The notes: a model not told the origin generated them from the letters alone. A stretch of 64,000 nt of DNA from a virus (IMGVR_UViG_3300045958_000007:8929-72928); one strand, 5' to 3'; positions 1 to 55,803 are shown, counted from the stretch's first letter. Numbers and translations are program-made.

Positions 1-459
1 AACATTCAGCGCAATATTCGAGAGGTGTGTGCCGAGAGCAGTCTCGAGGGCGAGAGTCGCGGCCTTCAGGGACTGCTGGTGCGCTGCGTCGATCAGAACC
101 GACATCACGGCTCCGACCGCGTGGGACCGGGCCGACGTCCCCGCTACTCCTCTGGTGACGGTGAGGGCCTGGCCGTTCACGGCCGTTACCAGCATGTGCT
201 CCCAGGCCGTGCATTTGGTCACGCCCGTCGCTACCTGCGTGGTCGAGTCGCAGATGGTGACGATCATGTTCACGGCGAATCCGGTGCCGCTCGCGACGAT
301 CGCGACGTTATCCGTAGGGGCCATCGCGAGGCTGATCGTCGTCTGGACGTTATCCGCCGTGATGAACAGCGTTGAGTCGGTATCGAGGGACCCGGGGTAA
401 TTCGTGGTCTGCGCGGAGAGGCCGCAGGCAAAGAGGACTGCCAGAATAAGATTTCGCAT
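1..459 (-). CDS. Tail fibre-like protein with N-terminal signal peptide (3' end runs off the window; absent from ORF track)
   Basis: Manual translation from ATG 459: MRNLILAVLFACGLSAQTTNYPGSLDT...WEHMLVTAVNGQALTVTRGVAGTSARSHAVG...ALETALG, open to base 1. Confidence 0.75.
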   Translation of the reverse strand, partial: MRNLILAVLFACGLSAQTTNYPGSLDTDSTLFITADNVQTTISLAMAPTDNVAIVASGTGFAVNMIVTICDSTTQVATGVTKCTAWEHMLVTAVNGQALTVTRGVAGTSARSHAVGAVMSVLIDAAHQQSLKAATLALETALGTHLSNIALNV

Positions 460-480
460 GGAATTGGGTGTTGGGTTGGT

Positions 481-1176
481 CTACTGCTGGCCTTGCGGCG
501 CGGCCGGCTGGGGGTTCTGCGGCGCCGACATGGCATTCTGTTCGACGAGTGCCGCCTTGGCTTCCTGCGCCGCCGCCCATACCGCCTGCGCCAGCGAAGG
601 CCTGCCCCACTGCGGGTGAAGATCCTTGGCGAGCAGCTTCACGAGCAGGCGGAGCCAGCCCTGCGGCATGTTCACGGTGTCGTTGACGGTCGCGAAGTTC
701 GCGAGCGGGGTCCAGTACGCCAACTCAAGCGTGCCGGGGGTGTAGGAGGGCGGTGGAAACACCCGCACGTTGATGAGCGGATACGCGGTGTCCGCGCCGA
801 CGATGGCCGGAATGGAGGTCTGCTCACCGAGCGCCTGTTTTGCCATCTCGCCGAACTCCGGCATCGAAAGCACCCGGCCGCCGGAATGCAGGATGGTGCT
901 GTAGTACGCGCGCCAGGCCGTGACTTTCATGGCGCGCAGGCCCCCGGCGGTGGAGAAGGTGCCCCCTGAGCCGAGAGTGTACCCGGTGACGCCCGCCTGG
1001 AGGCTGAACGCCTGCTCGACCTGGGTGGGGACGGTCAAGCCCTCGGCACTCAGCATGTCGAGGATCGGGTTCAGGCGGTTGTAGGCGTCCGTCTGCATCG
1101 CCGAGGTGATCGTCTCGGTGGGGGTGATGGTGCCGATGTCGATAAATGCGGTGTTGATGATGTCGCTGACTAGCAT
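481..1176 (-). CDS. Head-to-tail adaptor, P22 gp4-like
   Basis: N-terminal DIINTAFIDIG...DAYNRLNPILDML and C-terminal MPQGWLRLLVKLLAKDLHPQW pattern; size and context fit. Confidence 0.7.
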   Translation of the reverse strand: MLVSDIINTAFIDIGTITPTETITSAMQTDAYNRLNPILDMLSAEGLTVPTQVEQAFSLQAGVTGYTLGSGGTFSTAGGLRAMKVTAWRAYYSTILHSGGRVLSMPEFGEMAKQALGEQTSIPAIVGADTAYPLINVRVFPPPSYTPGTLELAYWTPLANFATVNDTVNMPQGWLRLLVKLLAKDLHPQWGRPSLAQAVWAAAQEAKAALVEQNAMSAPQNPQPAAPQGQQ

Positions 1177-1186
1177 GGGGATGGCT

Positions 1187-1912
1187 TTAGCAACTGCTGG
1201 AGGTGAGCAGGCCGCCCGAGAAGGTTTCCGTACAGGTAGTGCCCGCGCTGTTCTTCATGGTCTGGCTGTGGGTGACCCCCGCCGCACCGCCGACGCTGAA
1301 CCCGGTACTGGCGTTGATCGCGCCGGTGGCGTCGACCGGGTAGCCCGGCGAGGCGTTGCCTCCGAAGCCCACGCGGCCCGTGGTGAGGTCCACCGTGAGG
1401 CTGCTGGTCCCCGGCCAGACGAACGTACTCCCGGCGGTCAATCCGTTGGCGTAGTCGATGCGGAACACGCTCCCGGACTTCATCAGCCGGGCGGCGGTGG
1501 TCGAGCGCGCCACGTAGGCGGCGCCGCTGTACTCCGCGTCCCAGAGCATCTCCTGGTCGTCCGCGGCCTCGGAAAGCAGGGCGAGTGCGCCCGCCGCGTT
1601 GGCCTGCAGCTTGATCTGGTTCACCCCCGGGGCCGCCGCCGGGTTCAGGTAGAGCGGCGACGCGCTGGTGATGAGCCCTGTGCCGGAGGGCGTGAGCGTG
1701 ACGTTCTGGTTGCTTCCGCCGGCGAGAATCGAGATTGCGCCCGACGACGCCGAGACGTGCGCCGGGGTGGCGTTCTCCATGAACACGAGAGCGTTGGGGA
1801 TCGCGGCGTTGCCCCCGGTGAGCACCGGCGCGTGATTCGCCGCCAGCACCCCCAGTTGAACGCCGGCGAAGGCGGCGAACAAGACCGCCGCGAGAGTAAG
1901 GATCCGTCTCAT
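1187..1912 (-). CDS. Tail-region beta-rich protein with signal-peptide-like N-terminus (241 aa)
   Basis: Re-started at MRRILTLAAVLFAAFAGVQLG (ATGA overlap with upstream stop); C-terminal GRVGFGGNASPGYPVDATGAI resembles tail fibre motifs. Confidence 0.7.
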   Translation of the reverse strand: MRRILTLAAVLFAAFAGVQLGVLAANHAPVLTGGNAAIPNALVFMENATPAHVSASSGAISILAGGSNQNVTLTPSGTGLITSASPLYLNPAAAPGVNQIKLQANAAGALALLSEAADDQEMLWDAEYSGAAYVARSTTAARLMKSGSVFRIDYANGLTAGSTFVWPGTSSLTVDLTTGRVGFGGNASPGYPVDATGAINASTGFSVGGAAGVTHSQTMKNSAGTTCTETFSGGLLTSSSC

Positions 1913-2430
1913 GCTGCCATCCCTGTGGTGTGCTGCCCGATTTGCACGTACTTGCCGCCCGAGAGCCGGAAGTGAAACGTCGTGATCGTGTTGGCGCTGG
2001 TGTCGATATCGGAGGAGACCCCCGAAAACCCGGTGCCCCAGAGGGGCGAGGGGGCGCCGCTGCCGTCCGGCCGCAGAATCACGTCGAGCGCGCCGGCGCC
2101 AGTCGTCGGGGCCTGAATCGTGGAGGACGTCGATTTGAGCACCTGGTCGATGAGCTGCGTCCCGAAAATCCAAACCCATCCCATCGAGGCCGGGGACTGC
2201 TTGACCTGCCACTGGTAGATCAGGCCTGTGTCGGTCTCGATCCAGAGGGTTCCGTTGGGAATCCCTTGCGTGTCGAGGGCCTTGCGCGATGCGCTCGTGC
2301 CGAACTGGACGATGCCCCCGCCGGTCGCGGCCGAGTCCCGCACCGCCTGATAGAAGAGGTACCAGTCCCGGCCGAAGAGCCCGTTTACGAGCGGCGGGTT
2401 CGATTGCTGCGGAACGATCGGAACGTCCAC
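1909..2430 (-). CDS. Putative tail protein downstream of gp10
   Basis: Tightly coupled ORF; PLVNGLFGRDWYLFYQ-type N-terminus seen after gp10-like genes. Confidence 0.6.
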   Translation of the reverse strand: MDVPIVPQQSNPPLVNGLFGRDWYLFYQAVRDSAATGGGIVQFGTSASRKALDTQGIPNGTLWIETDTGLIYQWQVKQSPASMGWVWIFGTQLIDQVLKSTSSTIQAPTTGAGALDVILRPDGSGAPSPLWGTGFSGVSSDIDTSANTITTFHFRLSGGKYVQIGQHTTGMAA

Positions 2431-2431
2431 C

Positions 2432-4585
2432 CTACGCTACCCCGGCCTCGTACTCGATATCGAGGTCGATCAGCATCAATTGATACTGGCCGGTGCCCGA
2501 GAGTCGGAATACCCGGTCGCGCGAGGCGCTGGTCCCGGCCCAGAAAACGCGCTGGCTGTAGGCTCCGGCCACGCCGGCGCCGCCCGTCACCGGCGAAATC
2601 GGATAAACGAAGGTGTTGCCACGGTCGTCGGAGTAGTCCCGCGTGATGGTCGGCTGTATCGTCGCCGAGCTCGTGGTGCCGGTTGCCACCTCGAGCGTCA
2701 TGCGTCCGAAAAACTGGAGGACGCCGGCGGCGTAGAAGTGCGGCAGGACGCGGATCCACTTCTTGTCTGCGCCGTTGTCGTCGAAGTAGTTGAGGTTCAC
2801 CTCGTAGAAGCTGCCGGAGGCGAAGTCGCAACCAATATGCATCCCGGCCGGTCCCCACTCCGGGATGAAGGTGTGGAACCGCGGCACGTAAGACGCGAAC
2901 GCCGATCCGGTCCAGGCCGCCCGCTGGTGCCAGATCGGCGTCCCCGCCTGTTGGCTCGCGGTTTCGTCGTAGACGTATGTGTTCAACGCTCCCGGAAAGT
3001 TGATGACCCAGAACTGATGCCCGTCGTGGACTTCCGGGTAGGCGATCGCGCCCGATGGAGTATCGATCCCGGAGGCCCAGGCCGCCTCTTCGGCGTGCGT
3101 CGAGATGCGGGTCGGGGTGAAGCCGTCGATCCGGTACGCGATGGGCGTCCCGCGCGGGCTGCCCCCGAGGTAGTAAATCCTCTCGCTCATCGCCACCGGC
3201 GCGTAGCGCGCGACACTGCCCTCGCGAGCCGCCGCCCCGCTGATCCGCTGAAACGGAAACGTGGGGTCGCCGGTGTTCTGCCAGACTTCGCTTTCCTCGC
3301 TGCCGAAGATGTAGAGCTGCTCGTGGTCTGCGAGGACCGACTGGATGTAGTCGGGCGCCCCCTCTTTGGTCGCGAAATCGAGCGGGTCCCAGGTGGTGCC
3401 GTCGAAGGGGGCGGAGATGTTGAACTGGCCGCCGAGGTCAGCTCCCACCGCGGCGGTGTAGGTTACTCCCGTGAGCGTGCCCGGCGAAACGCTGACCAAG
3501 AGAAGAGTCGCACTTACGACATCGACCACCGTGTAGTTGAGCCCGGCAATCGTGATCTTCTGGGTTGGCACGATCTCGTCGAACATGCTGCCGCTTACCC
3601 AGTTGACGGTCGTTCCCAAGGTGCTCACGGTGCCGCTCAAGGTCTGGAGCGTTGCCGTGAAGGCCGCGCCGGTCTGGGTGCCGGCGCCCCCGGTGAGCGT
3701 GATGCTCGTCGAGGAATTGACCGTCTGGATGTCGTATGCAATTCCGCTGATGACGATCTGCTGGCCCGCGATCAGCCGCGCGAAGTTGTCCCCCGAGGTC
3801 CAGGTAACGGCCGTGCCGCTGGTCGACACGACGCCCCGGAGCTGCTGCGGCGGGCGCTGCACGATGAAATAGCTGTCGAGGTATGCCCCCGTTACCGCGG
3901 TCACGGGATCGCCGTAAGCGGCGGCGTAGGTCGCGCCCGTCTGCGTGCCGGCGCTCGCCCCGAGGGTGAGACTGGTTGCGGAGTTCCAGGTGACGCTGTA
4001 CGGCGTTCCGTCGATCAGGATGTAGCCGCCGTTCATGGACGACGGAAACTCATCCCCGGAGACCCAGGTAACCGCCGTACCGGAGGTATTGACCGTGCCG
4101 CTGATCTGGAAGTGAGCGATGGCGGGGCCCGAGCCCTCATCGATGTAGGCGTAGCCGTTCTTGACGATCAAGAGCTGGTTGCCGTTGCCGAACATCTGCC
4201 CCGGGTAGCCGTCCGAGGTCGAGCCGGTAAGCTGCTGCTTGGTAATCATCGCCCCCGAGCCCGTGGAAGGGTTGCCCCCCACGTAAGAGCCGATGCCCAA
4301 CTCCCACAGCCAGGAATTCCCGCCGGCAACGCCGTTGGAGTCGTCGGTGAGGACGAACAGCCGGCCTCCGCCCGACCAGGCTCCGCGGAAGACGTGCCCC
4401 GACGTGCTGCCGAGCGTGTTCACGTCGCCGATCTTGTGGTACCCGGGCGCGAATTCGAGGATGCCCTTGTTCTTGCCCTGCTCGTTGGGGTCGTCGATGA
4501 ACTGCGGAATCAGGTTCATCGTCTGCTGGCAGGCAGCGGCCGGGTTGCGCAGGGTGTAGGACTGGCCGACTAAAGGGACTTTCAT
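2432..4585 (-). CDS. Tail hub / packaged DNA stabilization protein, P22 gp10-like, with three inserted repeats
   Basis: MKVPLVGQSY...QTMNLIP start; FATKEGAPD, IFGSEESEVWQNTG, RISTHAEE and RDRVFRLS motifs. Confidence 0.85.
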   Translation of the reverse strand: MKVPLVGQSYTLRNPAAACQQTMNLIPQFIDDPNEQGKNKGILEFAPGYHKIGDVNTLGSTSGHVFRGAWSGGGRLFVLTDDSNGVAGGNSWLWELGIGSYVGGNPSTGSGAMITKQQLTGSTSDGYPGQMFGNGNQLLIVKNGYAYIDEGSGPAIAHFQISGTVNTSGTAVTWVSGDEFPSSMNGGYILIDGTPYSVTWNSATSLTLGASAGTQTGATYAAAYGDPVTAVTGAYLDSYFIVQRPPQQLRGVVSTSGTAVTWTSGDNFARLIAGQQIVISGIAYDIQTVNSSTSITLTGGAGTQTGAAFTATLQTLSGTVSTLGTTVNWVSGSMFDEIVPTQKITIAGLNYTVVDVVSATLLLVSVSPGTLTGVTYTAAVGADLGGQFNISAPFDGTTWDPLDFATKEGAPDYIQSVLADHEQLYIFGSEESEVWQNTGDPTFPFQRISGAAAREGSVARYAPVAMSERIYYLGGSPRGTPIAYRIDGFTPTRISTHAEEAAWASGIDTPSGAIAYPEVHDGHQFWVINFPGALNTYVYDETASQQAGTPIWHQRAAWTGSAFASYVPRFHTFIPEWGPAGMHIGCDFASGSFYEVNLNYFDDNGADKKWIRVLPHFYAAGVLQFFGRMTLEVATGTTSSATIQPTITRDYSDDRGNTFVYPISPVTGGAGVAGAYSQRVFWAGTSASRDRVFRLSGTGQYQLMLIDLDIEYEAGVA

Positions 4586-5401: not shown

Positions 5402-6355
5402 TCAGTAAACCAGCATCACGGGCCCAACGCTGGCCGTGAAGGTCGTAGTCGGAGTGATCGCGGCCAGGGTGCCGAACGTGCCCGTCTGCGAGCCCGTCCC
5501 GTAGTTGGTGGGGGCGCCGGCGGTGGCGTAGGCCTGGAACGTGTCGGTGGTGCCGTTCCCCTGGAGCGCGATGAAATAGGTCTGCGGACCCACCACCCGC
5601 ACCGTCGAAGTGAAGTTGATGCATTGGTACTTCGAGGCGGTGGCGGTGGTAGTTCCGGCGGTGGCGGTATTCGCGATCAGGGCTCCCGAGGAGTCGTAGA
5701 GCGCGAAAATCCACTTATCGGTGGCGACCGTCGCACCGTTCAGCACGCACGCGCCCGTGAGGGTCGCATCGTTGCCGATGTTGAGCTGGGAGAACCAGAT
5801 CTTACCGGCCACGTCGGTCACGGAGGCGTTACTGATGGCGGTCGGCGGAACGAAGGTGGAGAACGCGGTAAACGGCTGCGTCTGGAGCTCCGGCAGGTGG
5901 CCGTGCTGCCACGCGCCGGCCACGCAATAGTTCCAGTGGCCGGTGCGGACGTTGAGCCGCGGGTTGTTGACGAGCGCCGAGGCGGTGCAGGCGCCGGAGG
6001 CGTCGTTCGGGCCGTTGTCGAAATAGCCCGGAGGCCCGAAGTAGACGAGTTCGCCGACGAGGTGCGCGGTACGCATGCTGCCGTTCTGGCCGCGGCGGAC
6101 GGTCCAGATGTTGCCGGTGACGTTGGCGACGACTTCCATGTATTCCCGGCCCACGAAGAGGCCGGTCATGACCTGGTTGTTGGTGCCGAGAGCCGCAACG
6201 CTGATGGTATTGGGCGAGCCGCCGGTGGAGGCCGAGAGCACGATCATGGTGTCCTTGGCCGACATGGGGGAGGCGATGGTGACCTGCGGGGTGACTTCCT
6301 GCGCGAACGCGAAAGCCACCAGCAGAAGAGTGGAGGCAATCAGTTTTTGAAGCAT
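5402..6355 (-). CDS. Signal-peptide-bearing beta-rich protein directly after coat (decoration-like position)
   Basis: MLQKLIASTLLLVAFAFAQ; EYMEVVANVTGNIWTVRRGQNGSMRTAH virion-type motif; several Cys. Confidence 0.8.
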   Translation of the reverse strand: MLQKLIASTLLLVAFAFAQEVTPQVTIASPMSAKDTMIVLSASTGGSPNTISVAALGTNNQVMTGLFVGREYMEVVANVTGNIWTVRRGQNGSMRTAHLVGELVYFGPPGYFDNGPNDASGACTASALVNNPRLNVRTGHWNYCVAGAWQHGHLPELQTQPFTAFSTFVPPTAISNASVTDVAGKIWFSQLNIGNDATLTGACVLNGATVATDKWIFALYDSSGALIANTATAGTTTATASKYQCINFTSTVRVVGPQTYFIALQGNGTTDTFQAYATAGAPTNYGTGSQTGTFGTLAAITPTTTFTASVGPVMLVY

Positions 6356-6429: not shown

Positions 6430-7686
6430 TTAGCCGCAGATGCGCACGCCCCAGTCGCCGCGCTGCGCAACCCAGCCGAACATGATGTCGCAGCGGGTAG
6501 CAAAGATGTCGTTCACGATGTCGTACTGGGACACCGTGCGGATCGACATCCCGGTGGCGGGATCGGTGGCGCGCTTCGCCATCTCGACCGCGCGGGGCAG
6601 GTCGAGCGGCACGCAGGCCCAGGCGTAGGCTTCCTTGTGGAAGGCCATCGCCTGCGGGGTCAGCGTTCCGGCGGTGCCGAACAGGGTCAACGCCGCGCCG
6701 GAGAGCGGAGTCGTGTTGCAGGTGGCATACGGATTCGGCAGGCCGTTGTTGTTGGTGCCGACCGCGATCGCCGGGTAGATGGGCACCACGCCGTTGCCCG
6801 AGCCGTCCGCGTTCACCGGAGCGGTGACCACGAACTGCCGCAGATCGCTCAGGGTGTCGCCCGAAACCGGGTTCACCGCGTAGATCGGGGTGCCCCCGAC
6901 GCCGAGCGTGAACACGTCGCCGGCGTTATAGACGTTCTGCGCGTTGGGGGTGAGGCCGTTGATGACGAGGGCGCTGCCGGTCTGGCCCGCGCCGTTGACG
7001 ACCGGGGTGCCCGCGCCCGAGCCGATCGTGTGGGTGCGGATGTTCTGGGCGAGCAGCCAGTCGAAGCCGGCGCCGGTGCCCATCCGCCCTTTGAGGTACT
7101 GCTTTTTGATCTGCTCCGAGCTCTGGAACAGGCCTTTCAGGGTATCGATGATCTGGGTCTGGAACTTCGACGCGATCACCATGTACCGCTGCTCGTCGAT
7201 CGGCGCCGAATTGCGGTCCAGGGCCTCGAGAGCGGAGAGGTACGTCTGGAAGGCGGTCGAGCCGTTGGGCACGCTGCCGGGGGTGCCGACCACGTTCGGA
7301 GTAGCCTGGTAGGCCACGGTGAGGCCGACCACTTCGGCGGCGTTCGACAGCGCGATCGCCGCGCCTTCGATGTAGCGTTCGCCGATGCGGTCGATCGAGA
7401 GCGTCTGTTCGGCCGAGGTGAAGCTGAAAGCGGTGTGCTTGCGCTGGTTGATGACCAGCGGGATTTTCCGCTCTTCGACGTCCTGGATGACCAGGTTGGC
7501 GCCGTCGACGGCAGCGAATCGCACCGGATCCCGGAGCGAAAGGGTGTCGCCGATCTTGGCGCCCGGTTTGGCGAAGTGCTCGGACCAGTCTTCGTGGTGA
7601 ACGGCTTTGGCAAAGCCGAGGTTGTTTTGGAAGCGCCGCAGCAGTTCGTTGGTGATGATCTGCGGCGTAAGAATCGTATTGGACAA
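6430..7686 (-). CDS. Major capsid protein, P22 coat family
   Basis: SNTILTPQIITNELLRRFQNNL, KIGDTLSLRDPVRF, MAFHKEAYAWACVPL and RCDIMFGW motifs; follows scaffold. Confidence 0.92.
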   Translation of the reverse strand: MSNTILTPQIITNELLRRFQNNLGFAKAVHHEDWSEHFAKPGAKIGDTLSLRDPVRFAAVDGANLVIQDVEERKIPLVINQRKHTAFSFTSAEQTLSIDRIGERYIEGAAIALSNAAEVVGLTVAYQATPNVVGTPGSVPNGSTAFQTYLSALEALDRNSAPIDEQRYMVIASKFQTQIIDTLKGLFQSSEQIKKQYLKGRMGTGAGFDWLLAQNIRTHTIGSGAGTPVVNGAGQTGSALVINGLTPNAQNVYNAGDVFTLGVGGTPIYAVNPVSGDTLSDLRQFVVTAPVNADGSGNGVVPIYPAIAVGTNNNGLPNPYATCNTTPLSGAALTLFGTAGTLTPQAMAFHKEAYAWACVPLDLPRAVEMAKRATDPATGMSIRTVSQYDIVNDIFATRCDIMFGWVAQRGDWGVRICG

Positions 7687-10379: not shown

Positions 10380-12614
10380 TTATGCGGCCTGGGCGGCTTG
10401 CGGCCCAGCCGGTTGCTGCGCCTGCGCCTGTTGCGCGGCCTGCTGCTGGTCAAATTGCTGCTGTTGCTGTTGCTGCTGCTGTTCGTGCTGTTGCTGGGCC
10501 TGCTGCATCTGCTGCGCCTGCTGGAACTCCCGCTCCTGCCCGGCGGCGTCGGCCGCGATGGTGAGGTTGGCGTGCTCCAACTCGGCGCGGAGATCGAGCG
10601 CGTGTTTGACCCCGGCGTGATCGAGTTGCGCGAGCTGCGTCATCTGCGCGCTCTTGGCCGTGGTCTCGGCCACCTGGAGCCGGGTCCGGTTGTTCTCGGT
10701 GTTCATCCGCTCCTTCGACTCGATATCGAGCATCTTGCCCTTGAGTAGCTGGAGCAATTGCTGGTTTTCGACCGTGAGCGCCTGGATCAACTGCTGCCCC
10801 TGCTGGAGCTGCGCCTGGATGGCCGGCGGGATGGCGTGCTCGTCCTCGTCCTGCAGGTTGGCCGGGAGCATCTTCTTCAGGCGCTTGGCGATCCGGTCGG
10901 CGCCGGGGAAATCGGAATTCTCGAAGTAGATGTCGGCGACGAGTTGCATCAACTGCGGGTTGCCCTGCGCCAGCGCCATCAGGGTGTCGCGCGTCTCCTG
11001 CCGCGCCGACGTATAGCTGGGCCCCTGCTCCACGGTGACGTCGTACTTGCCGACGTCGAGGCGATGGTGCTTGGTGCGGCCGTCCTGGTCGGTGAACGGG
11101 GCATTGACCCTGATTACCCGCTGTTTCTGGTCCTCCCCGATGATGCGGATTTCGCGGGCCGTATCGTACTTCTTGGGGATGAGGTCGAGGAGGATGCGTC
11201 CGGCGCGCTTGAGGGCGCGCGCCAGGTTGTCCATGAAATGAAAATTGGAAACGTCCCCCTGCTTCTGCAGCTTGCCCACGGCAACGCCGGAGAGGTCCTC
11301 CTTGACCGCGCCGAGCGAGGGGTCGAAGTATCCGGTCGAGGCCTTGATGTCGTCCGCAGCCGCCGCGGCACCGATCGAGAGGGCCTGCACCGGCGGGTCG
11401 AAGGTCCGCCATTGGGGCTCGGGCGCCAGCTTGTCCCCCACGGCCACGGCGTCATATTCGAGATAGGCCGCGTTGTCGCTGTTTGCGCGCTGCCAGTCCT
11501 TGCGTTTCGTTTTGAACTGGCCGACCGCCCCTACCCATTTCGGTTTGGGGGCTAAGGCGATGGTTTCGGCTTCCATCGTCTTGTAGAAGTTGAGGAGCTG
11601 CTGCGGATCGCGGGCGAACCGCGTCATCGAGAAGATGCGGCGCTCGCCCCGCACGATCATCTCGAGGCCGGTCACCATCACGATGGGGATGGTGGAGCCG
11701 TCCCACGGGGTCGGCTCCTCGAGCACCTGCGCGCCGTTGATGATGTACTGGGTTACCTGCGGGATCGAGACCGTGCGCTCCAGGATCTCGCCGTCCGGGC
11801 CGGTGGCCCAGTCCATCGCCTCGATATCGGCGTCGGTGAGGCCGTCCTTCTCCTTGAGGTCCTCCAGGTATTCACGGTGAAGGGTTCCGTCCTCTTCGCG
11901 GCGCATCCGGAGGGTCTTTTGGACTTCCTGGACCTCCCAATACTCCGCGACGAGCCGCGAGGTGGCGTCCATCCACCCCTCGTTTTCGAGGTCGGTGGCG
12001 AATTCGTCGGACAGGTCCGAGGCGTCGGGGCCGAAGCGCGCTTCAAAGGCGTCATTGGCGAAACGCTCGAGCACGAACCCCCACTTGGCATCGGAGCGGT
12101 CGGGCTTCCGCGCATAGCAATCGAGGTAGATCGAAAACGGATCGTCGACCGTGACCGTCTTGAGGTCCTGGTCGAAGCTCTCGTTGTCGGTGTACTCGGA
12201 GGTGTAGCGCCAGTAGCCGAAGCCGCAGCCGGCGGCGTAGAACAGGGCCGTGTCGTAGGCCTGCTCCGCGTCCGAGTCGTACTCGATATGGCGGATCAGC
12301 CCCTGCAGGACCTTGGCGGTGTCGGGGTCGCCTGCCGAGTCCACCGGGTTGACCCGGATGGCCGGCTTGTTCTGGCGCGCCTGGTTGCCGAGTTGGGTAA
12401 CCGGAGGCAGGACTTTGTTGAAGACGAGGCACGGCCGCGGCGAGGGGCCGCGCTCGCGATCACGCTTCACCTTCTGGTCCCACTGCTGGCCGGCGAGAAA
12501 CTCCAGGTCGATGAGCGCCTCCCGCCTGATTTCCTGCTCGGCGGCGACGGCCTGCTGATATCTTTTCCGGGCTCTCTCGAGGACTTGCCGGTACTTACTC
12601 TGGTTGAGCGGCAT
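10380..12614 (-). CDS. Portal protein, P22 gp1-like, with Gln-rich C-terminal tail
   Basis: DLEFLAGQQW, RPCLVFNKV, HIEYDSDAEQAYDTA, RFARDPQQLLN and GKYDVTVEQGPSYTS motifs; start set at MPLNQSKY. Confidence 0.92.
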   Translation of the reverse strand: MPLNQSKYRQVLERARKRYQQAVAAEQEIRREALIDLEFLAGQQWDQKVKRDRERGPSPRPCLVFNKVLPPVTQLGNQARQNKPAIRVNPVDSAGDPDTAKVLQGLIRHIEYDSDAEQAYDTALFYAAGCGFGYWRYTSEYTDNESFDQDLKTVTVDDPFSIYLDCYARKPDRSDAKWGFVLERFANDAFEARFGPDASDLSDEFATDLENEGWMDATSRLVAEYWEVQEVQKTLRMRREEDGTLHREYLEDLKEKDGLTDADIEAMDWATGPDGEILERTVSIPQVTQYIINGAQVLEEPTPWDGSTIPIVMVTGLEMIVRGERRIFSMTRFARDPQQLLNFYKTMEAETIALAPKPKWVGAVGQFKTKRKDWQRANSDNAAYLEYDAVAVGDKLAPEPQWRTFDPPVQALSIGAAAAADDIKASTGYFDPSLGAVKEDLSGVAVGKLQKQGDVSNFHFMDNLARALKRAGRILLDLIPKKYDTAREIRIIGEDQKQRVIRVNAPFTDQDGRTKHHRLDVGKYDVTVEQGPSYTSARQETRDTLMALAQGNPQLMQLVADIYFENSDFPGADRIAKRLKKMLPANLQDEDEHAIPPAIQAQLQQGQQLIQALTVENQQLLQLLKGKMLDIESKERMNTENNRTRLQVAETTAKSAQMTQLAQLDHAGVKHALDLRAELEHANLTIAADAAGQEREFQQAQQMQQAQQQHEQQQQQQQQQFDQQQAAQQAQAQQPAGPQAAQAA

Positions 12615-12906
12615 GGGGGAGGGGTTCGGGCTCGGCCGGCACAACAACGGGCGCGCACTCGTGCGCCTTGCCGGCTCCGCCCGCGGCGCCGCAGAACGGG
12701 CACTCGTCGGTCATCGGCCGGGGGGTAAATCTCAGGTACGGCCGCAGGCGATCAATCATGAGGCGGCGCGCTTCGGGCGCGGCTCCTTCGAGCAGGCGGT
12801 CGAGCATCTCCGGCGTGAAAATGGCGTTCGCCATCAGGGCGATGCGGCGGTCGTCGCGGCGCTCCTGGGGCGAGAGTTTGCGGGGGCGGGTGAAGCGGTG
12901 GCTCAT
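12595..12906 (-). CDS. Hypothetical protein with C-terminal CxxC, paralogue of 4582..4791
   Basis: MSHRFTRP start by ATGA coupling; DRLRPYLRFTPRP motif. Confidence 0.6.
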   Translation of the reverse strand: MSHRFTRPRKLSPQERRDDRRIALMANAIFTPEMLDRLLEGAAPEARRLMIDRLRPYLRFTPRPMTDECPFCGAAGGAGKAHECAPVVVPAEPEPLPHAAQPE

Positions 12907-14136: not shown

Positions 14137-14139
14137 TGT

Positions 14140-14340: not shown

Positions 14341-14343
14341 GGC

Positions 14344-16086
14344 TCATCGGCACCCCACCAGCGCATTAGGCAGCGGAAACAGGCATGGCGTTGGCCCGGG
14401 AATCGTGGACAGATTCGTAGGCTCGGATGGATTCCAGCTATACGGCGCGTTGCCGCTGATGCCAGGAATGCGGAAGGTTAAAGCGTAGTTCCGCATCGAG
14501 TCGCCGTTCCAGTTGTTCCCGGCCGAGTCCCCGACATTGCCGCGAGGTCCATTTTGCGGACCGGCATAGCCGATGCCGCTGTCCAGTTTCCAGTCGGAAT
14601 AGCTGGTCCCGGTTGAGCCGTAAGCGGCCGTAATGTTCAAGCTGACGCTGGTACCGCCCCCATAGCTGGTAACGGTGCCGGTCATGTAGTTGGCCGGGTT
14701 CGCGGTCGAGTAGCAGTAGATGTAATCGCCAGCCCCGAAGCCGGAACTGGCGTTCGGGATCGCGAAGGTTTGGGAGCCTGTCTGGTCTGGATTGTTGGAG
14801 GTGGCACTTGCGGCGGCGCAAACGCCCGTCGAACAGTGGCCGCTTGGCGACGTCCATGCATAGCGCAACTCAAAGGTTTCGGTTGCGGCCGGCGTCCCCG
14901 ACAGCGTAATTCGGACCGTATCGTTGGTTGCCCCCTTTAGGGCCACCGATGAAATGGTGAAGCCGCCTGCGCCGGTGTCCGTCAACTCGAAACCATAGTT
15001 GCCGTCCGGCAGCGCGGCCACATTGGTCGTATCGAGCACGAGCGGCAGCGTTGGTACCCAAAACTGCACGTCGATGTACTGGCCCGTGACCGTAATGGAA
15101 CGCGGCGCAAACGGCTTCCAGCCCAGGTGCTGATACGTGACTCGCGCCAGAGCGGCGCCCTCGATGGCGCCTTGCTGCCGATATCCCACGGCCGTCTTGT
15201 GTACGCCATCAGGCCCATAGGCATAGGGGTAGTCAGGTCCAAAGCAGAAAATTGTCCCGTCCGAATAATGGTCAAGACACGCCTGAAACTGACCTACCGG
15301 AACACCATCCCCGCTGGTTGACGCTGTTGGCGTGCTACGGACGGAGCCGCCCAGTGAGGCAGAAGCCCAGGACGACTTCTGCCAGATGAACAACGGCACC
15401 AGCCCGGTCTGACTCAGAACCGAGTTAAGCGAGGTCTGGTAGTCGGACTGAAGCTGAACCATGTCGGCCTCATAGGTCGAGTAGGTGGTCGAGCCGTTCA
15501 TTTCGCTTTCGCCCTGGTTATAGGAGACGGCCGGCGTGTAGAACTTCTTGCCCAGGCCGGTGGCAATCTGTTGGGCGCCCCACGCGCCCGAACTCGTTAT
15601 GCCATCGTTCGGAGTTAGGTTGCCCACGGCGTCGTTAAATTCACAGTTCGGCGAACCCGGCGTGCCGCCTGTGCAACTGGTGGCGCCCTTTTTCAGGATC
15701 GCGTAGGACGCTCCCGGCCATCCGTAATCGTCGGTCGCGCAAACCCGACCCGTTGCCGTGTTGTATTGGTTGCACATCGAAGTCGCCGGGCTTTCCAGCG
15801 ACGGGGGTGTGAGGCCGTTCCAGGTCTTGGGGACCAATGTGGTGAACGACGTATTCCCCCACGGATACAGGCCGTTGGAGGGATACATCATGAGACTGCC
15901 GTAAGCCGATCCCGACGTGCAGTTTGCATACCCGGTCGAGCTACAGTAGCCCGCCCAGCCCACGGACAGCGATTGCCCGTACCGGACAATCCAGATGATG
16001 TAATTGCCGGCGGCGTGGGCGACACCGATCCATGCGAAGGCCAACAGAAGAAAACAGAGGGCGTAGTACGCAAAAGTGCGCTTCAC
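14344..16086 (-). CDS. Secreted SGNH-superfamily esterase (SASA / sialate O-acetylesterase-like) with C-terminal beta domains
   Basis: Signal peptide MKRTFAYYALCFLLLAFAWIGVAHA; YGQSLSVG, YNQGESE and DGVH catalytic blocks. Confidence 0.75.
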   Translation of the reverse strand: MKRTFAYYALCFLLLAFAWIGVAHAAGNYIIWIVRYGQSLSVGWAGYCSSTGYANCTSGSAYGSLMMYPSNGLYPWGNTSFTTLVPKTWNGLTPPSLESPATSMCNQYNTATGRVCATDDYGWPGASYAILKKGATSCTGGTPGSPNCEFNDAVGNLTPNDGITSSGAWGAQQIATGLGKKFYTPAVSYNQGESEMNGSTTYSTYEADMVQLQSDYQTSLNSVLSQTGLVPLFIWQKSSWASASLGGSVRSTPTASTSGDGVPVGQFQACLDHYSDGTIFCFGPDYPYAYGPDGVHKTAVGYRQQGAIEGAALARVTYQHLGWKPFAPRSITVTGQYIDVQFWVPTLPLVLDTTNVAALPDGNYGFELTDTGAGGFTISSVALKGATNDTVRITLSGTPAATETFELRYAWTSPSGHCSTGVCAAASATSNNPDQTGSQTFAIPNASSGFGAGDYIYCYSTANPANYMTGTVTSYGGGTSVSLNITAAYGSTGTSYSDWKLDSGIGYAGPQNGPRGNVGDSAGNNWNGDSMRNYALTFRIPGISGNAPYSWNPSEPTNLSTIPGPTPCLFPLPNALVGCR

Positions 16087-17174
16087 TGGATCACCAAGTC
16101 CACCACGACGACCACGTTGGCGTTAGTCGTGTAAGTGCCCGGCAGAAGCCCAATGTCCAGGGTTTGGCCTGCGGTCACGGCCTGATTGAGCCCAGACACA
16201 TAGCCTTGCACTTCGGCGCTACCCGGCATGTTGCCGGTAAACAGATTCACCAGCGTCCCGTTGCCGCAGTTTCCGGTGTTCCCTGCCACGCAAATTGCAA
16301 TTTGCGTGTTCCCCCCGGGCGAGGTTGAACCGGCGCTATTGAGCAGATTATAAGTAGCGGCCTTGATCGTCCCTGTCTTCGGCGAAACGATGGAATAGGT
16401 ACTGCCGTTGCTCCCCGTGGACGCGCTATTCGGGTACATGGCGGCAAAAACGTAGGTAGACGTGTTGCTGGCCAGCGTAGAGTTGTGCAGATCCATGTGA
16501 ACAACGGTCTGGCCCGTGCCGCCGCTCTGCTGCGTCCATGCGTTAGCGGAGCCGCATTCGTAGATGTTTTGGCCCGCGGTGGCGTCGGTAGCAAAGTAAA
16601 GCTGACCCTGTGTACAAGTTCCCGGCATGGCGGCAGTAGTCCCCTTTTGGACCGGGAGTGTCGTTGCCGCGCTCATGTCCTGCGTGGTGCCGGAGCTGTA
16701 GGTGTTGCTTGTGGTAGTGCTGACGTTGCCCGTGCCGGCCGGTCCCTGCGGGCCTGTCGCGCCCGTCGCGCCAACTGGCCCCATACTGCCGGTCGAAATC
16801 GAGCACGTCCCCGAAGTAGAGGCGCTGAACGTGATGGTGGTGACGTTGGCGCTCGTCGCCACGACAGACGAAACCGAAGTAGACGCGCCCGAGGAGCCCA
16901 GCTCATTCCCCGAGGTGTCATAGCAGGCGACCCACGGCTGGCTCGTCCCGAGGTTGTGAGTGGCGGCCAGAGTCGTACCGGACGCGAAGGTGCATCCTGT
17001 CGTCCCGGTTCCCCCGGTGATGGAGCACGTCGCCGGCGCGGTAAAAGAAACCGTCGCGGGAGTACTCCCGGTCCCGCCGCCGCCGCTGCCCCCGGTGACG
17101 ACGGGCGGGGCTACTGGCACCTGAGCGAGTGCAACGCTCGCGAGGCACGTACCCAACACCAGGGCGCGAATCAT
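16083..17174 (-). CDS. Secreted fibre-like protein with short collagen-like stretch
   Basis: MIRALVLGTCLASVALAQ; GPVGATGATGPQGPAG; Thr/Gly-rich with Cys pairs. Confidence 0.7.
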   Translation of the reverse strand: MIRALVLGTCLASVALAQVPVAPPVVTGGSGGGGTGSTPATVSFTAPATCSITGGTGTTGCTFASGTTLAATHNLGTSQPWVACYDTSGNELGSSGASTSVSSVVATSANVTTITFSASTSGTCSISTGSMGPVGATGATGPQGPAGTGNVSTTTSNTYSSGTTQDMSAATTLPVQKGTTAAMPGTCTQGQLYFATDATAGQNIYECGSANAWTQQSGGTGQTVVHMDLHNSTLASNTSTYVFAAMYPNSASTGSNGSTYSIVSPKTGTIKAATYNLLNSAGSTSPGGNTQIAICVAGNTGNCGNGTLVNLFTGNMPGSAEVQGYVSGLNQAVTAGQTLDIGLLPGTYTTNANVVVVVDLVIQ

Positions 17175-17659
17175 TTCTCCCTCCAGACCAGGGTGATGTT
17201 TGCGGTTCCCGTGATCGAGGAAATCGTCACGGTGTAATTGGCTCCTGTCCCGGCTCCCGCTCCGAAAGACAGCTTGGAGAGGTCCAGGTTGATCGTGTTC
17301 GGCGCCGAAGCGAGGTGGGTGATGCCGCCGATCGCCGTCCCCGCCCCTACGTTCGATGCGGTCCAGACCGTGGCACTCGCCGGAGGACCTCCGGGCGGCA
17401 GCGCGGCCGCCGTGCCGGCGGTTGCGGTCGCGGCCGAGCCGTTGACCGATTGCGTGATGTTGCAGGTGACCGAGCAGTAGACCACGGCGGTTTCGAGCTG
17501 CAGGAGTTTCCCCCCACTCGCCGGCTGCTGGATCGTGAAGCTGGTCCCGGCGGCGGTGAGGTTGACGTCGCCAGTTGTGGCCGAGTAGCGATACTGCGCC
17601 AGCGCGCAGGCGGGCAGAAGACAGAGCAGCAGAGCGATGCTGCGAAGCGGGAATTTCAT
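17171..17659 (-). CDS. Secreted beta-rich protein
   Basis: MKFPLRSIALLLCLLPACALAQ signal; GGAG ribosome-binding site upstream. Confidence 0.75.
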   Translation of the reverse strand: MKFPLRSIALLLCLLPACALAQYRYSATTGDVNLTAAGTSFTIQQPASGGKLLQLETAVVYCSVTCNITQSVNGSAATATAGTAAALPPGGPPASATVWTASNVGAGTAIGGITHLASAPNTINLDLSKLSFGAGAGTGANYTVTISSITGTANITLVWREK

Positions 17660-17703
17660 AGGGAGGGGGACCTTTGGAAACCTAACGGCGGATCTTTGGC
17701 AAC

Positions 17704-43535: not shown

Positions 43536-43581
43536 AGCCGTGCCCCGGCTCCCACGATACGATAAGGGCAGGAGCCCGTGT

Positions 43582-53486: not shown

Positions 53487-53494
53487 CCGCAATC

Positions 53495-54052: not shown

Positions 54053-54209
54053 GATGGAAGGCTTTGCGAAATTCGGTCGCTGACTCTCCTAAAGAGGTTC
54101 TTTCGAGAGTAGCGTGTTACGCCGCGATAGAGGAATCGGCGGACTCTTTGAACCCTAGGCGCGCCCTGCGTGCATCAACCGCCGACCCTTCGATTTCGCA
54201 TCGGTGAGA

Positions 54210-54818
54210 CTAGGACCGAATCAGTCGATCCCCCGCCCGATAGGCGTCGGCGAACGCCTCCAGGCCGTGACTGCCGCCGTTCACCAGGCGCCGGGCGGTC
54301 CCCAGGTCGGCGGCGGCGAGCGCCGCCCGGATGCGCGGCTCCTTGGCCTTGAGGAAGCTCGCGAGCAGCCGGGCCGCGATTACCGGATCGTTCGCCAGAT
54401 CCGGGCTCGCCACCAGGTCCACCCCGATTGCGGCGCCGTGCTGCTGGTAATTCGCGCGGCCGGTCAACTGGACGAAGCCCCGGCCGCGGAACCGCTCGCC
54501 GTCCGGAGCCCCGCGGTTGCCGAGATCGGGGCGCGAGTCGTACAAGTCGAAGGGATGCGCCGGAGCCAGCGGGGCGCCGGGCTCCTGGCGAACGAGCGCC
54601 TGGCCCGCCGGCGACGTGTTGAACCGCGAGATGCCCTCGCTCACGGGCTCGAATGCCGAGGCCTCGGCCCGAATGGTGCCGAGCGCCATCAGGAGCATAC
54701 TCCGGTCGCCGAGCTGCGCGTCCGAGAGCGCCTGCAGGACGTGCGGCAGGTTCGCCTCGATATTGCGCAGCGGGGCGCCGGGGAACATCGGAGCGACCAG
54801 CGCGGCCGTGACGGTCAC
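54210..54818 (-). CDS. Endolysin, glycoside hydrolase family 19
   Basis: TIRAE, DLGN, FRGRGFVQLTGRANY and RRLVNGGSHGL motifs. Confidence 0.9.
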   Translation of the reverse strand: MTVTAALVAPMFPGAPLRNIEANLPHVLQALSDAQLGDRSMLLMALGTIRAEASAFEPVSEGISRFNTSPAGQALVRQEPGAPLAPAHPFDLYDSRPDLGNRGAPDGERFRGRGFVQLTGRANYQQHGAAIGVDLVASPDLANDPVIAARLLASFLKAKEPRIRAALAAADLGTARRLVNGGSHGLEAFADAYRAGDRLIRS

Positions 54819-55027
54819 CGCAACGCCTCCGCGTACTCGCCGAGGGCATCCGCGTAGTCCCGGAGCGCCGCACAGAGTGCGTCCTTACTCCGGTTGCCCT
54901 CGCACGCGACCAGGAGGGTAGTGATGGTCGCCTCTGCGCAGCCGCTATCGCGCAGGCGCCCGGCGAGCCGCTGGGCCGCTTCGTCGAGGCGGTCCGCCGC
55001 CCGGTTGAACCGTTCGCCGTCCATCAT
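54815..55027 (-). CDS. Small helical protein in lysis cassette
   Basis: Coupled to neighbours. Confidence 0.55.
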   Translation of the reverse strand: MMDGERFNRAADRLDEAAQRLAGRLRDSGCAEATITTLLVACEGNRSKDALCAALRDYADALGEYAEALR

Positions 55028-55225
55028 CTATTGCTTCCTCCGGTACATGAGGTAGCCGGACCAGAGCAGGGCGAACGCCGCCGCGATCTTGACCAGCTCG
55101 CCGTGCGGCACCGCTTCCCAGCGGACCGAGGCAAGCAGGCTCATTCCGGCCGCGCCGCCGGCGCCGGTCGAGAGCACGTCCGCGATCTTGTTATGGCTGT
55201 TCGGGTCCACGGGGGAGGGCGTCAC
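55028..55225 (-). CDS. Putative holin
   Basis: 65 aa, hydrophobic segments, basic C-terminus YRRKQ, next to endolysin. Confidence 0.55.
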   Translation of the reverse strand: MTPSPVDPNSHNKIADVLSTGAGGAAGMSLLASVRWEAVPHGELVKIAAAFALLWSGYLMYRRKQ

Positions 55226-55803
55226 CTGGAGCCCCCGAAGCTGTAGAAGGCCATGAACTCGGGGCCCATCTGCAGGCTGCTATTGGTGCCCGTGACCGAC
55301 GCCGGGAGGGTGGTGCCGGTGGCGCGGAGGATCGGCATGAGAAACAGGTGCGGGGCGGGCTGGAAGGCGAGGAATACTCCAGTCGAATAGGCCAGAGCGT
55401 TGGCTCCGGACGGGGGCGCCGATTGTGTGTTGGCGAATCCGCCGTCGACCAGGAATCCGAGGAAGGCTTTGCCGCTGGCGCTCTGCGCGGCGACATAGGC
55501 CATGCCGGTGCGGATGCTGGTGGGCAAGTAGGTCTTAGTCCCGTTGGCGGCGAGCTGCGCGCCGGCGAGAGGGGTCGAAAAGGTGTTCCACCAATACCAG
55601 CTCGAGCCGCTGCCGAGCTGGACCGCAAGCGAGGTCACATTCGAGAGGGGTACGCTGGCGGCGCGATCCCACTCGACGCCGGTGCCAACGAGATAGGGCG
55701 GGAGGCTGGCGGTCGAGACGTTGGAGACCGGGAGCTGCGGCGCGGGGGCCTGTGCAAGTGCGGACACCGCCGCGAGAGTTAGCGCGAGAGTCAGTTTCAT
55801 CAT
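55222..55803 (-). CDS. Secreted, possibly outer-membrane beta-barrel protein
   Basis: MKLTLALTLAAVSALAQ; amphipathic strands ending PEFMAFYSF. Confidence 0.65.
   Translation of the reverse strand: MMKLTLALTLAAVSALAQAPAPQLPVSNVSTASLPPYLVGTGVEWDRAASVPLSNVTSLAVQLGSGSSWYWWNTFSTPLAGAQLAANGTKTYLPTSIRTGMAYVAAQSASGKAFLGFLVDGGFANTQSAPPSGANALAYSTGVFLAFQPAPHLFLMPILRATGTTLPASVTGTNSSLQMGPEFMAFYSFGGSR

Follow-up and report, generated by a model that had tools for sequence, protein, structure and literature searches.

Sec-type signal peptides on a tailspike and a putative capsid-associated sugar-binding protein of a soil podovirus suggest maturation outside the cytoplasm

The DNA analysed here (the window) is a 64,000-nucleotide stretch of the viral genome IMGVR_UViG_3300045958_000007 (8929-72928), which belongs to a 73-kb soil phage whose sequence relatives are uncultured. 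The phage is a podovirus of the GP4/phi24B/P22-like kind with a soil bacterium as host, and is temperate-looking. All genes given below with window coordinates lie on the minus strand. They include the genes for adaptor paralogue A, a leaderless, gp4/SU10-adaptor-like protein of 231 amino acids with no cysteine (481..1176), a P22 gp10-like nozzle protein of 717 amino acids (2432..4585; phrog_578 Hc3) with relatives that carry Pfam Phage_stabilise, a P22-type major capsid protein of 418 amino acids (6430..7686) and a portal protein of 755 amino acids (10380..12647). Immediately after the nozzle gene lies g173 (1909..2430), which encodes a leaderless 173-amino acid protein with a conserved N-terminal module and, by position, is needle- or central-fibre-like; proteins of this type, leaderless and 173-961 amino acids long, follow the nozzle gene in all relatives. 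In 10 independent contigs the genes run in the order adaptor A, tailspike, adaptor B, nozzle, with the tailspike leader present or absent, whereas in the window phage the nozzle gene has moved elsewhere. Tails of the GP4/phi24B type are built from two adaptor rings, a hexameric nozzle, lateral fibres at the adaptor–nozzle contact, a needle and a giant ejection protein (bioRxiv 10.64898/2026.04.10.717836). The window phage matches this part list, encoding two adaptor paralogues, the gp10-like nozzle, the post-nozzle needle-like gene and a giant SLT-bearing internal protein; however, its equivalent of the lateral fibre bears a leader, while the phi24B account mentions no signal peptide. The lysis genes (54210..55225) encode a 65-amino acid holin-like membrane protein, a 70-amino acid protein and a leaderless GH19-type endolysin.

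Eight open reading frames had been read, from the sequence alone, as carrying Sec-type signal peptides, and all eight (SP1 to SP8) were recovered, with GC3 of 0.74-0.90 and leader anatomy in each. The leaders are 16-25 residues long, with one or two Lys/Arg near the start, no Asp or Glu and an uncharged hydrophobic core, and in all eight Ala stands at position -1 and Ala, Val or Leu at -3. Six had been said to have Gln right after the cut, and A|Q is found at 1..459, 5402..6355, 16083..17174, 17171..17659, 27507..28154 and 55222..55803; the other two, at 1187..1912 and 14344..16086, have A|A at the predicted cut. The start codons are sound: upstream in-frame extensions have GC3 of 0.08-0.67 and are non-coding, no alternative start of the eight yields a longer coding-like frame, three of the eight overlap the upstream gene as ATGA or GTGA, and purine-rich RBS-like motifs precede several. 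Leaders were called by a simple heuristic together with family conservation, rather than by a trained predictor, and among ~104 ORF calls genome-wide only these eight have Sec-like leaders. The same scan picked up a single N-terminal membrane anchor, in 55823..56518, and Tat-like RR N-termini in two other genes. A lipoprotein reading of the eight was rejected, the leader Cys of 1..459 and 17171..17659 being missing from homologues, and so was a Tat reading, the RR motif being present in 0/8. The n-h-c layout, the AxA-like cut and family conservation agree on Sec-type signals, and the eight N-termini are accordingly predicted, with confidence, to be real Sec/signal peptidase I leaders. SP8, an outer-membrane barrel, must use Sec and bears the same type of leader, which supports this reading of the others. 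Late expression of the eight genes is inferred from position only.

As a single class the eight genes do not hold together; they comprise three in the virion module, a cargo cassette of three, an outer-membrane protein, and SP7, which lies outside the structural region. The three that had been placed among coat, gp10 and gp4 genes (1..459, 1187..1912 and 5402..6355) do lie in the core virion module. The first of these, SP1, begins with a leader as claimed, but 1..459 covers just the first 153 amino acids of a 714-amino acid tailspike that extends past the window (whole gene G000:C1:7243-9387). Its leader (residues 1-16, cut LSA|Q) is followed by a conserved putative docking peptide, Q-T-T-N-Y-P-G-S-L-D-T-D, then by a beta-barrel N-domain with a Cys70/Cys83 pair, a helix and, from residue 151, a pectate-lyase-like domain (PF12708 matches residues 151-221 with 53 bits, the cut-off being 27), probably of the right-handed beta-helix type; homologues carry PF12708/PF13229. 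The N-module aligns over 107 residues with a chain of 116 residues in the portal-tail complex of phage GP4 (8jov_1, Z 11.7), and its fold also matches the tailspike N-domains of LKA1 gp49, phi297 gp61, AP22 gp54 and KP34p57, so that the virion-type character attributed to SP1 is borne out. Homologues share 57-72% identity over only the ~150 amino acids of the N-module, their C-termini being variable, and the docking motif Y/F-P-G-x-L-D-x-D..L.V..D-N is retained in leader forms. The gene has normal composition and a fixed slot. Podophage tailspikes of the P22 gp9 type, the four just named and the GP4 chain (PDB 8jov) are likewise built as an N-terminal beta-barrel and helix followed by a pectate-lyase-like beta-helix, with a conserved N-module, a variable C-terminus and a gene among those for adaptors and nozzle. 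SP1 differs from them in the cleavable Sec-type leader ahead of the docking peptide and in the conserved Cys pair within the N-domain. A search of the tail module of the window phage found no tailspike-like gene besides SP1. Known tailspikes are, as far as we know or could find, leaderless and fold in the cytoplasm.

SP2 (1187..1912) is a leader-bearing protein of 241 amino acids, ATGA-coupled to the upstream needle-like gene, with two C-terminal cysteines that are kept in the L072 homologue (37% identity). SP3 (5402..6355) is the leader-bearing post-coat protein, with 317 amino acids and four cysteines; a leader (residues 1-18, cut AFA|Q) precedes an FN3-like domain at residues ~20-110 and a CBM/jelly-roll domain at residues 160-317, and the gene is the next one after that for the coat protein in G000, G001, L015/16, L017, L069 and L070. 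Both SP2 and SP3 have normal base composition and fixed gene slots. Residues 160-317 of SP3 superpose on the 201-amino acid, capsid-bound chain Z of cyanophage A4 (Z 15.8), probably gp25, a capsid-bound sugar-binding module. A4 gp25 is an auxiliary cement protein with an N-anchor and a CBM (PDB 9jwb, PMC12002296); SP3 differs in its Sec leader, its four conserved cysteines and the FN3-like domain in place of the short N-anchor. The comparison of folds with tail fibres and decoration proteins thus gave matches for both SP1 and SP3, and the FN3-like virion domain together with the CBM domain agrees with a virion-type SP3, which on these structural matches is a putative capsid-associated glycan-binding protein.

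The remaining five genes are of other kinds. SP4 (14344..16086) has 580 amino acids, 13 cysteines, a GQS motif after the cut that is kept in close homologues, and a phrog_4201 'tail fiber' domain at residues 171-413; SP4 itself gave no Pfam match and no PDB sequence match, PF03629 (SASA esterase) appearing in distant homologues only, and it may be a SASA-like esterase. SP5 (16083..17174; 363 amino acids, eight mature cysteines, Gly/Thr-rich N-terminus) gave no family match and is translationally coupled to SP6 and SP4. SP6 (17171..17659; 162 amino acids) is a leader-bearing, BclA-C/C1q-TNF-like jelly-roll protein whose homologue in G001 (59% identity) has a diverged leader and an identical A|Q cut. 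The three leader genes form a cassette (14344..17659) with GC of 0.61-0.64 against ~0.66, and the gene set in G001 differs; lower GC and variable content are as expected of free cargo and count against a virion role. A search for promoter or terminator signals marking the leader genes as accessory cargo gave none above chance. SP7 (27507..28154; leader-bearing, 215 amino acids, four cysteines) is ATGA-coupled to a sigma-like gene and matched only a weak dockerin-like repeat. SP8 (55222..55803) has 193 amino acids, a Sec leader and no cysteine; a Pfam search gave no match, but with an Atlas feature score of 0.97 to OMP_b-brl clusters and TM of 0.64-0.72 to OMP models it is, on modelling, taken to be an ordinary phage-encoded outer-membrane barrel. 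Directly upstream of it lies the gene for a 231-amino acid i-spanin-like protein (55823..56518), which has a single membrane anchor at its N-terminus and whose periplasmic part is long and helical.

Among relatives, leaders at these loci are conserved across large families, being found in ~110/138 clusters of the tailspike N-module and in ~79 full-length post-coat homologues. Gln stands at +1 in 73/97 tailspike leader forms and is invariant in a 40-sequence alignment of the post-coat family. The leader sequence itself diverges, but not the cut site or the mature N-terminus; across hundreds of homologues leaders are kept in function, not in sequence. Homologues that start downstream of the hydrophobic leader would speak against a signal peptide, and most do not start there. 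Around 20 leaderless tailspike relatives occupy the same gene slot, and their starts lie 1-5 residues from the predicted cut of the leader forms, which suggests that cleavage recreates the native tailspike N-terminus. The tree of this family requires at least five events of leader gain or loss.

The paired cysteines that had been remarked on in several of the eight are present, mature counts for SP1 to SP8 being 10, 2, 4, 13, 8, 2, 4 and 0. Cysteine makes up 1.63% of the mature leader proteins and, in a set of 12 structural proteins that lack leaders, 0.18% (OR 9.3, p=2e-15). In post-coat homologues the count is even (4, 6 or 8) in 79/79, whereas cysteine is absent from 24/28 CBM relatives that lack the leader and from the L073 homologue, which is also leaderless. 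Two or more cysteines occur in the tailspike N-module of 79/92 leader forms and 4/23 leaderless ones, a link that is not significant after correction for phylogeny, with just five independent contrasts. Conserved leaders and even, conserved cysteines, set against mostly few or none in leaderless forms, argue well for export and oxidative folding. The sequence-only reading had proposed such a route, followed by addition to virions at lysis; its first part, periplasmic export with disulfide-dependent folding, is strongly supported by this comparison (leader conservation, invariant +1 Gln, even Cys), while the second can be put forward only tentatively.

Textbook assembly of tailed phages is wholly cytoplasmic. 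The Ff phages have virion proteins with signal peptides, pIII and pVIII, and are assembled by extrusion through the envelope; the window phage would resemble them in exporting virion parts before release, extrusion being the difference. Sec-exported or SAR endolysins are phage proteins exported by host machinery before release, and lambda Lom and Bor are also phage-encoded exported proteins. We know of no tailed-phage virion protein that is Sec-exported. Porphyromonas phages encode Q-rule signal-peptide proteins (PMC10367356), and phage-encoded beta-barrel OMPs exist (bioRxiv 10.64898/2026.10.24.761521). SP8 is exactly of the kind seen in these phages and in Lom and Bor, with its use of host Sec and its host-typical +1 Gln. 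However, those proteins are accessory or moron products with envelope or unstated functions, while here leaders stand on homologues of core virion parts. WceF of Pantoea stewartii is described as a secreted tailspike-fold enzyme with a signal peptide, acting on exopolysaccharide (PMC7949094); it resembles SP1 in its signal peptide and tailspike-like beta-helix and differs in being encoded by a chromosomal EPS-cluster gene.

A tailspike and a capsid-associated protein normally fold inside the cell, and with a Sec signal and paired cysteines on both, these proteins apparently mature outside the cytoplasm, a route undescribed for tailed phages. In the explanation that we favour, at somewhat short of an even chance, exported SP1, SP3 and probably SP2 remain virion parts and the others are exported cargo. 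Host Sec would move surface-acting phage proteins across the inner membrane, the signal peptidase cut would mostly bare a Gln that could cyclise to pyroglutamate, and disulfides would form in the mature chains in the periplasm. SP1, SP3 and probably SP2 would wait there, and DNA-filled, spike-less particles would receive them only after the two compartments are joined by the holin lesion and lysis, SP1 docking where adaptor rings and nozzle meet, by means of the conserved peptide at its mature N-terminus. SP8, SP4-SP6 and SP7 would be ordinary exported cargo, with the envelope or slime of the infected cell as their probable target. Retention of the docking motif and repeated gain and loss of the leader in one slot are best explained by late docking, and virion attachment after holin action or lysis is our best, if tentative, reading of the sequences. 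Leaderless sisters with the same tail module would keep to the classical, cytoplasmic route, which implies several switches; this large soil podophage group may thus have shifted final virion assembly out of the cytoplasm more than once, a suggestion made with similar reserve. To our knowledge post-lysis assembly is without precedent in Caudoviricetes. It would also mean dilution, which counts against late docking, and so does the thought that the g173-family protein could be the true receptor-binding protein, making the tailspike dispensable on the particle.

Possible, though doubtful, is the alternative that the leaders work and the exported proteins never join the virion, being instead free or envelope-bound depolymerase, esterase, CBM proteins and OMP that strip or remodel the polysaccharide and receptors of the infected or lysogenic cell, such that progeny leave the slime or superinfection is blocked, with adsorption left to a leaderless needle- or fibre-like protein. 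The g173-type protein found in all relatives would suit that task and SP4-SP6 resemble mobile cargo; phage proteins with Q-rule signal peptides have been reported and interpreted as modifying the host surface (PMC10367356), phage OMPs are on record (bioRxiv 10.64898/2026.10.24.761521), and WceF is described as a secreted bacterial tailspike-like EPS enzyme (PMC7949094). It leaves unaccounted for, however, a docking peptide and particle-binding-type domain kept at 57-72% identity beside variable C-termini, the constant place between two adaptor genes, and at least five switches between virion-bound and free forms in one slot without loss. Less probable, and in our view unlikely, are two pools arising from incomplete late export, in which the cytoplasmic precursor assembles normally, its leader uncut or otherwise removed, and the exported pool is free enzyme. 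Leader gain or loss would then carry little risk, which fits the repeated switches on the tree, and no extracytoplasmic assembly would be required; but an uncut hydrophobic leader would sit right on the conserved docking peptide, the conserved, even-numbered cysteines speak for an oxidising compartment as the place where the functional form folds, and the invariant +1 Gln suggests selection on the cleaved end. That these are no export signals at all, but N-termini hydrophobic by chance, wrongly assigned starts or segments cut by a phage protease, is very improbable. Predictors do flag some capsid proteins whose actual cut is made by prohead proteases (PMC10367356); here, however, the layout, cut and supported starts are common to eight unrelated proteins, their leaders are kept in function across homologues, leader presence covaries with Cys, and the SP8 barrel must be exported.

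Should the periplasm be where the parts for host recognition and decoration are made, as the favoured explanation has it, infectivity would be complete only at lysis, and the surface proteins of the virion could draw on disulfides and blocked N-termini for survival in soil. Pipelines that count a signal peptide against a structural role would then mislabel receptor-binding proteins. Sister genes with and without a leader, sharing one fixed slot, offer a ready comparison for experiments.

The host is probably a member of the Acidobacteriota (Terriglobia). Set beside the 6/8 phage leaders with Gln at +1, 14/45 Terriglobia leaders (31%) have it compared to 3/32 (9%) in alphaproteobacterial controls (p=0.03), the Terriglobia sample being two to three genomes scored by a crude heuristic. 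The paper on the Q-rule analysed no Acidobacteria (PMC10367356); the present counts hint at a +1-Gln rule outside Bacteroidota, and phage leaders may help in host assignment.

Sec-type signal peptides had been claimed for eight genes by the sequence-only reading, and all eight (minus-strand genes, here SP1 to SP8) have the anatomy expected of them. Each predicted leader comprises 16–25 residues, has one or two Lys/Arg but neither acidic residues nor any charge in its hydrophobic core, and ends in Ala (−1); each ORF displays coding-type GC3, and Gln is exposed after the predicted cut in six, the number originally put forward. The start codons are credible, since upstream in-frame extensions look non-coding, three ORFs begin in an ATGA/GTGA overlap with the preceding stop codon, and RBS-like purine runs precede several starts. 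Of ~104 ORF calls in the genome, only these eight have such leaders, if a membrane-anchored protein and two N-termini of Tat-like type are set aside. A membrane-anchor reading was rejected because the h-regions are too short, as was a lipoprotein reading of SP1 and SP6, where the Cys inside the leader varies among homologues. The early-region genes at 44873-45145 (+) and 43471-43989 (+) encode the twin-arginine-like N-termini M-N-R-R-G-F-L... and M-T-R-R-K-L-F..., and may specify Tat-exported phage proteins; the homologue of the former in the relative G001 has the same motif. Promoter and terminator scans near the leader genes gave no signal beyond chance.

The virus record (G000) is one contig of 72,928 bp with 66% GC, of which the window covers bases 8929-72928. 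Its final 100 bases are found again within a repeat close to the contig start, and a giant minus-strand ORF is broken by both contig ends into pieces of 905 aa (G000:C1:1-2717) and 2396 aa (window 56813-64000), so that the genome is probably circular or permuted and the giant protein, joined across the ends of a circle, probably exceeds 3300 aa. It begins with an SLT lytic transglycosylase domain, and its orthologue in G001 has 6512 aa. A long operon on the minus strand is transcribed from the terminase small and large subunits through SP6, SP5 and SP4 to the portal, scaffold and P22-type coat protein, followed by SP3 (5402..6355), a gp10/nozzle-like gene, the needle-like g173 (1909..2430, 173 aa), SP2 (1187..1912), a gp4/SU10-adaptor-like gene (adaptor A, 481-1176), SP1 (714 aa, the first 153 of them encoded at 1..459), a second adaptor paralogue (adaptor B, G000:C1:6410-7243, minus strand) and, lastly, a GNAT-like gene, genes for ejection proteins and the gene of the giant internal protein with its SLT domain. 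Such a set of parts agrees with a GP4/phi24B-type podovirus tail. The phi24B tail has two stacked adaptor rings, a nozzle, lateral fibres at the adaptor–nozzle contact, a needle and a giant ejection protein (bioRxiv 10.64898/2026.04.10.717836); the two gp4/SU10-adaptor paralogues that flank SP1 in every relative looked at fit its stacked rings. Cultured relatives are distant, with coat protein identity of at most 37%. The GNAT-like protein (~155 aa, G000:C1:5930-6406, minus strand, outside the window) is kept within the tail/ejection module of all the relatives (L017, L069, L070, L071, L072 and L073), an odd location for an acetyltransferase-like gene.

The eight leader genes differ in kind. 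SP8 (55222..55803) encodes a small β-barrel of the outer membrane (Atlas feature score 0.97; TM 0.64-0.72 to OMP clusters) and its leader is put to ordinary use, phage OMPs being already known (bioRxiv 10.64898/2026.10.24.761521). Directly upstream (SP8 and this gene together spanning 55222-56518, minus strand) lies a gene for a 231-aa i-spanin-like protein with a single membrane anchor at the N-terminus and a long, helical stretch in the periplasm, and holin-like and GH19 endolysin genes adjoin the pair. No lipoprotein o-spanin was seen; the i-spanin-like protein and SP8 could form a spanin-like system with the barrel as outer-membrane partner. SP7 (27507..28154), encoded away from the structural region, could be assigned to no family, a dockerin-like match being sub-threshold (E 0.089); Pfam, NCBIfam, PADLOC and PDB sequence searches returned nothing useful for SP2, SP5, SP6 or SP7.

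SP6 (17171..17659), SP5 (16083..17174) and SP4 (14344..16086) form a translationally coupled, Cys-rich cassette. The jelly-roll fold of SP6 is of the BclA-C/C1q-like type and has viral relatives. SP4 carries a conserved GQS block past the cut and matches a ‘tail fiber’ PHROG domain strongly (E 1e-48), its distant relatives carrying the SASA esterase family. The lower GC and GC3 of the cassette (0.61-0.64 and 0.74-0.81 at 14000-18000, against ~0.66 and 0.8-0.9 in the rest of the phage) suggest more recent acquisition. The closest complete relative, G001 (IMGVR_UViG_3300044818_000015; a 90-kb genome with direct terminal repeats and 62% identity in the portal), has SP6 alone of the three, followed by other large leader-bearing genes; positions 60062-78079 hold seven or more late genes with leaders, among them genes for proteins of 1103, 933 and 747 aa, and its portal and coat genes are separated by ~9 kb of inserted leader-bearing genes. 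The cassette thus looks like exchangeable exported cargo.

SP1, SP2 and SP3 occupy set positions within the core virion module, and for two of them structural models point to virion parts. The modelled N-module of SP1 (pLDDT >90 across the barrel) matches, nearly end to end, a 116-residue chain bound in the GP4 portal–tail complex (Z 11.7), as well as N-terminal domains of several podophage tailspikes. It is followed by a pectate-lyase-like domain, and the family's conserved N-module with variable C-terminus is the architecture of receptor-binding proteins. SP3 (pLDDT 84) is modelled as two domains, one FN3-like and resembling those of lambda gpJ, the phage Chi tail tip, the GP4 tail complex and the VP1 capsid (Z about 9), the other a CBM/jelly-roll for which a capsid-bound chain of 201 aa from cyanophage A4, probably its auxiliary cement protein gp25, gives the best match (Z 15.8). 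The earlier description of some leader-bearing proteins as virion-type gains support from the predicted folds of SP1 and SP3. A complex prediction combining the two adaptor paralogues with the mature SP1 N-module (aa 17-150) scored 0.00 in a run without controls, from which no conclusion is drawn. The tail module contains no second tailspike-like gene. Members of the leaderless, needle- or fibre-like g173 family (173-961 aa) directly follow the nozzle in all relatives, and could themselves bind receptors; the 961-aa member from L015 was considered as a Rosetta-stone fusion of anchor and leader protein and rejected, as it has no similarity to any leader protein.

The leaders are retained among relatives. 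In the post-coat (SP3) family nearly all full-length members, counted as 79 of at least 280 aa among 127 matches, bear a leader followed by a conserved mature N-terminus, with +1 Gln invariant in a 40-sequence alignment. For the tailspike (SP1) family, ~20 word-index matches grew to 405 when the mature N-module was searched exhaustively with HMMER; ~110 of 138 usable cluster representatives have a leader, and 73 of the 97 that were cleanly classified align Gln at +1. Leader sequences vary freely while the cut site and the motif Q-T-T-x-Y-P-G-x-L-D-x-D...D-N-V-Q-T-T-L are fixed, as would be expected if the signal peptide works. Homologues do not generally start downstream of the hydrophobic segment: most tailspike-family members start with the leader, and ~20 are truly leaderless. 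The latter begin M-S-x-(Y/F)-P-G-x-L-D-x-D, 1-5 residues from the expected start of the cleaved protein, in the identical slot order of adaptor A, tailspike, adaptor B and nozzle, and their start abuts the upstream gene, which makes a hidden leader impossible. In one such phage, L073, the post-coat homologue is also leaderless and starts at that family's mature motif, and in five phages whose tailspike has a leader the post-coat gene has one too; leader state therefore seems to be fixed per phage rather than per gene. It is clustered on the N-module tree, where nine changes are needed, at least five of them on well-supported branches.

Cysteine content follows the same division. The mature chains of SP1 to SP8 have 10, 2, 4, 13, 8, 2, 4 and 0 Cys, bearing out the cysteines reported in the sequence-only reading: 1.63% against 0.18% in twelve leaderless structural proteins (OR 9.3, p=2e-15). 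All 79 leader-bearing post-coat members have an even mature number (4, 6 or 8), with C203 in 78 and C245 in 77, whereas 24 of 28 leaderless relatives with the SP3-type C-terminal domain have none, and neither does the L073 homologue; one leaderless CBM relative, P0091 (~190 aa), has uninformative gene context. Among tailspikes, the N-module holds at least two Cys in 79 of 92 leader forms (exactly two in 72) versus 4 of 23 leaderless ones (OR 29), and whole proteins average 1.71% versus 0.81%, with even counts in 67 of the 92. P0264, the nearest leaderless relative, has Asn and Val in place of the SP1 pair Cys70/Cys83. Across five phylogenetically independent contrasts the pair tracks the leader in two or three and never the opposite, a comparison that is underpowered and not significant. 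Family conservation, leaderless sisters and the Cys signature together make periplasmic export and oxidative folding very likely.

The proposed route would begin with host Sec export, cleavage by signal peptidase I and disulfide formation, steps for which the sequence support is strong. Mature SP1 trimers, SP3 and perhaps SP2 would then be held in the periplasm and dock on finished, spike-less particles when the holin lesion mixes cytoplasm and periplasm, or just after lysis; a holin is needed, since the endolysin is a leaderless GH19 enzyme. P22 tailspikes are the last part added and join spike-less heads efficiently in vitro, which makes late attachment feasible. We favour such late joining of the virion tentatively, at somewhat short of even confidence, as it best accounts for the strong constraint on the docking peptide in leader forms, for cleavage recreating the native N-terminus of leaderless sisters and for repeated leader switching in one slot. 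That the exported proteins instead stay off the particle and work on the envelope or slime of the cell that made them is the main rival, credible but rather doubtful; it fits the SP4–SP6 cassette and agrees with how Q-rule proteins of Porphyromonas phages have been interpreted (PMC10367356), but leaves the conserved docking module unexplained. A mixed pool, partly exported and partly assembled in the cytoplasm, is improbable.

No report of Sec leaders on tailed-phage tailspikes or decoration proteins was found in searchable literature. The coat proteins of Ff phages, virion parts that themselves bear leaders, are among the nearest known cases. Others are the Porphyromonas phage proteins of unknown function, the phage OMPs and WceF, a secreted bacterial tailspike-like enzyme (PMC7949094). 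New here are the pairing of orthologues with and without a leader in a single fixed slot, the exact match between a predicted cut site and a native N-terminus, and the covariation of cysteines with the predicted leader in two independent families.

The phage DNA occurs in soil metagenomes: the sequencing runs found were all of soil or rhizosphere DNA, none of RNA, and the two best may be where this DNA came from. GTDB matches of the post-coat family fall on three MAG contigs, one per phylum, that are labelled Methylocapsa, Acidobacteriaceae and a betaproteobacterium, phage-contig binning being unreliable. ORFs matching the family's N-domain occur in 47 of 401 genomes from the class of the Acidobacteriaceae MAG, versus 1 of 301 in the Methylocapsa MAG's order, that one being the MAG contig itself; searching 400 Terriglobia genomes with the post-coat profile for prophage relatives gave a full-length match to the MAG contig alone. 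In the 47 genomes (L025-L031), the FN3-like N-domain common to SP3 and SP1 is found inside a conserved ~782-aa secreted chromosomal protein and inside ~1300-aa phage-tail-like ORFs. By a crude heuristic, +1 Gln follows 14 of 45 leaders (31%) from Terriglobia-class loci (L034-L053; G295, G391, G355), against 3 of 32 (9%) in alphaproteobacterial controls (p=0.03; Gln background 3.9%). Soil occurrence, MAG labels, the N-domain counts and +1 Gln make an Acidobacteriota host plausible. The ‘Q-rule’ was reported for Bacteroidetes in a study that did not cover Acidobacteria (PMC5837995), and may extend to the latter, beyond Bacteroidota.
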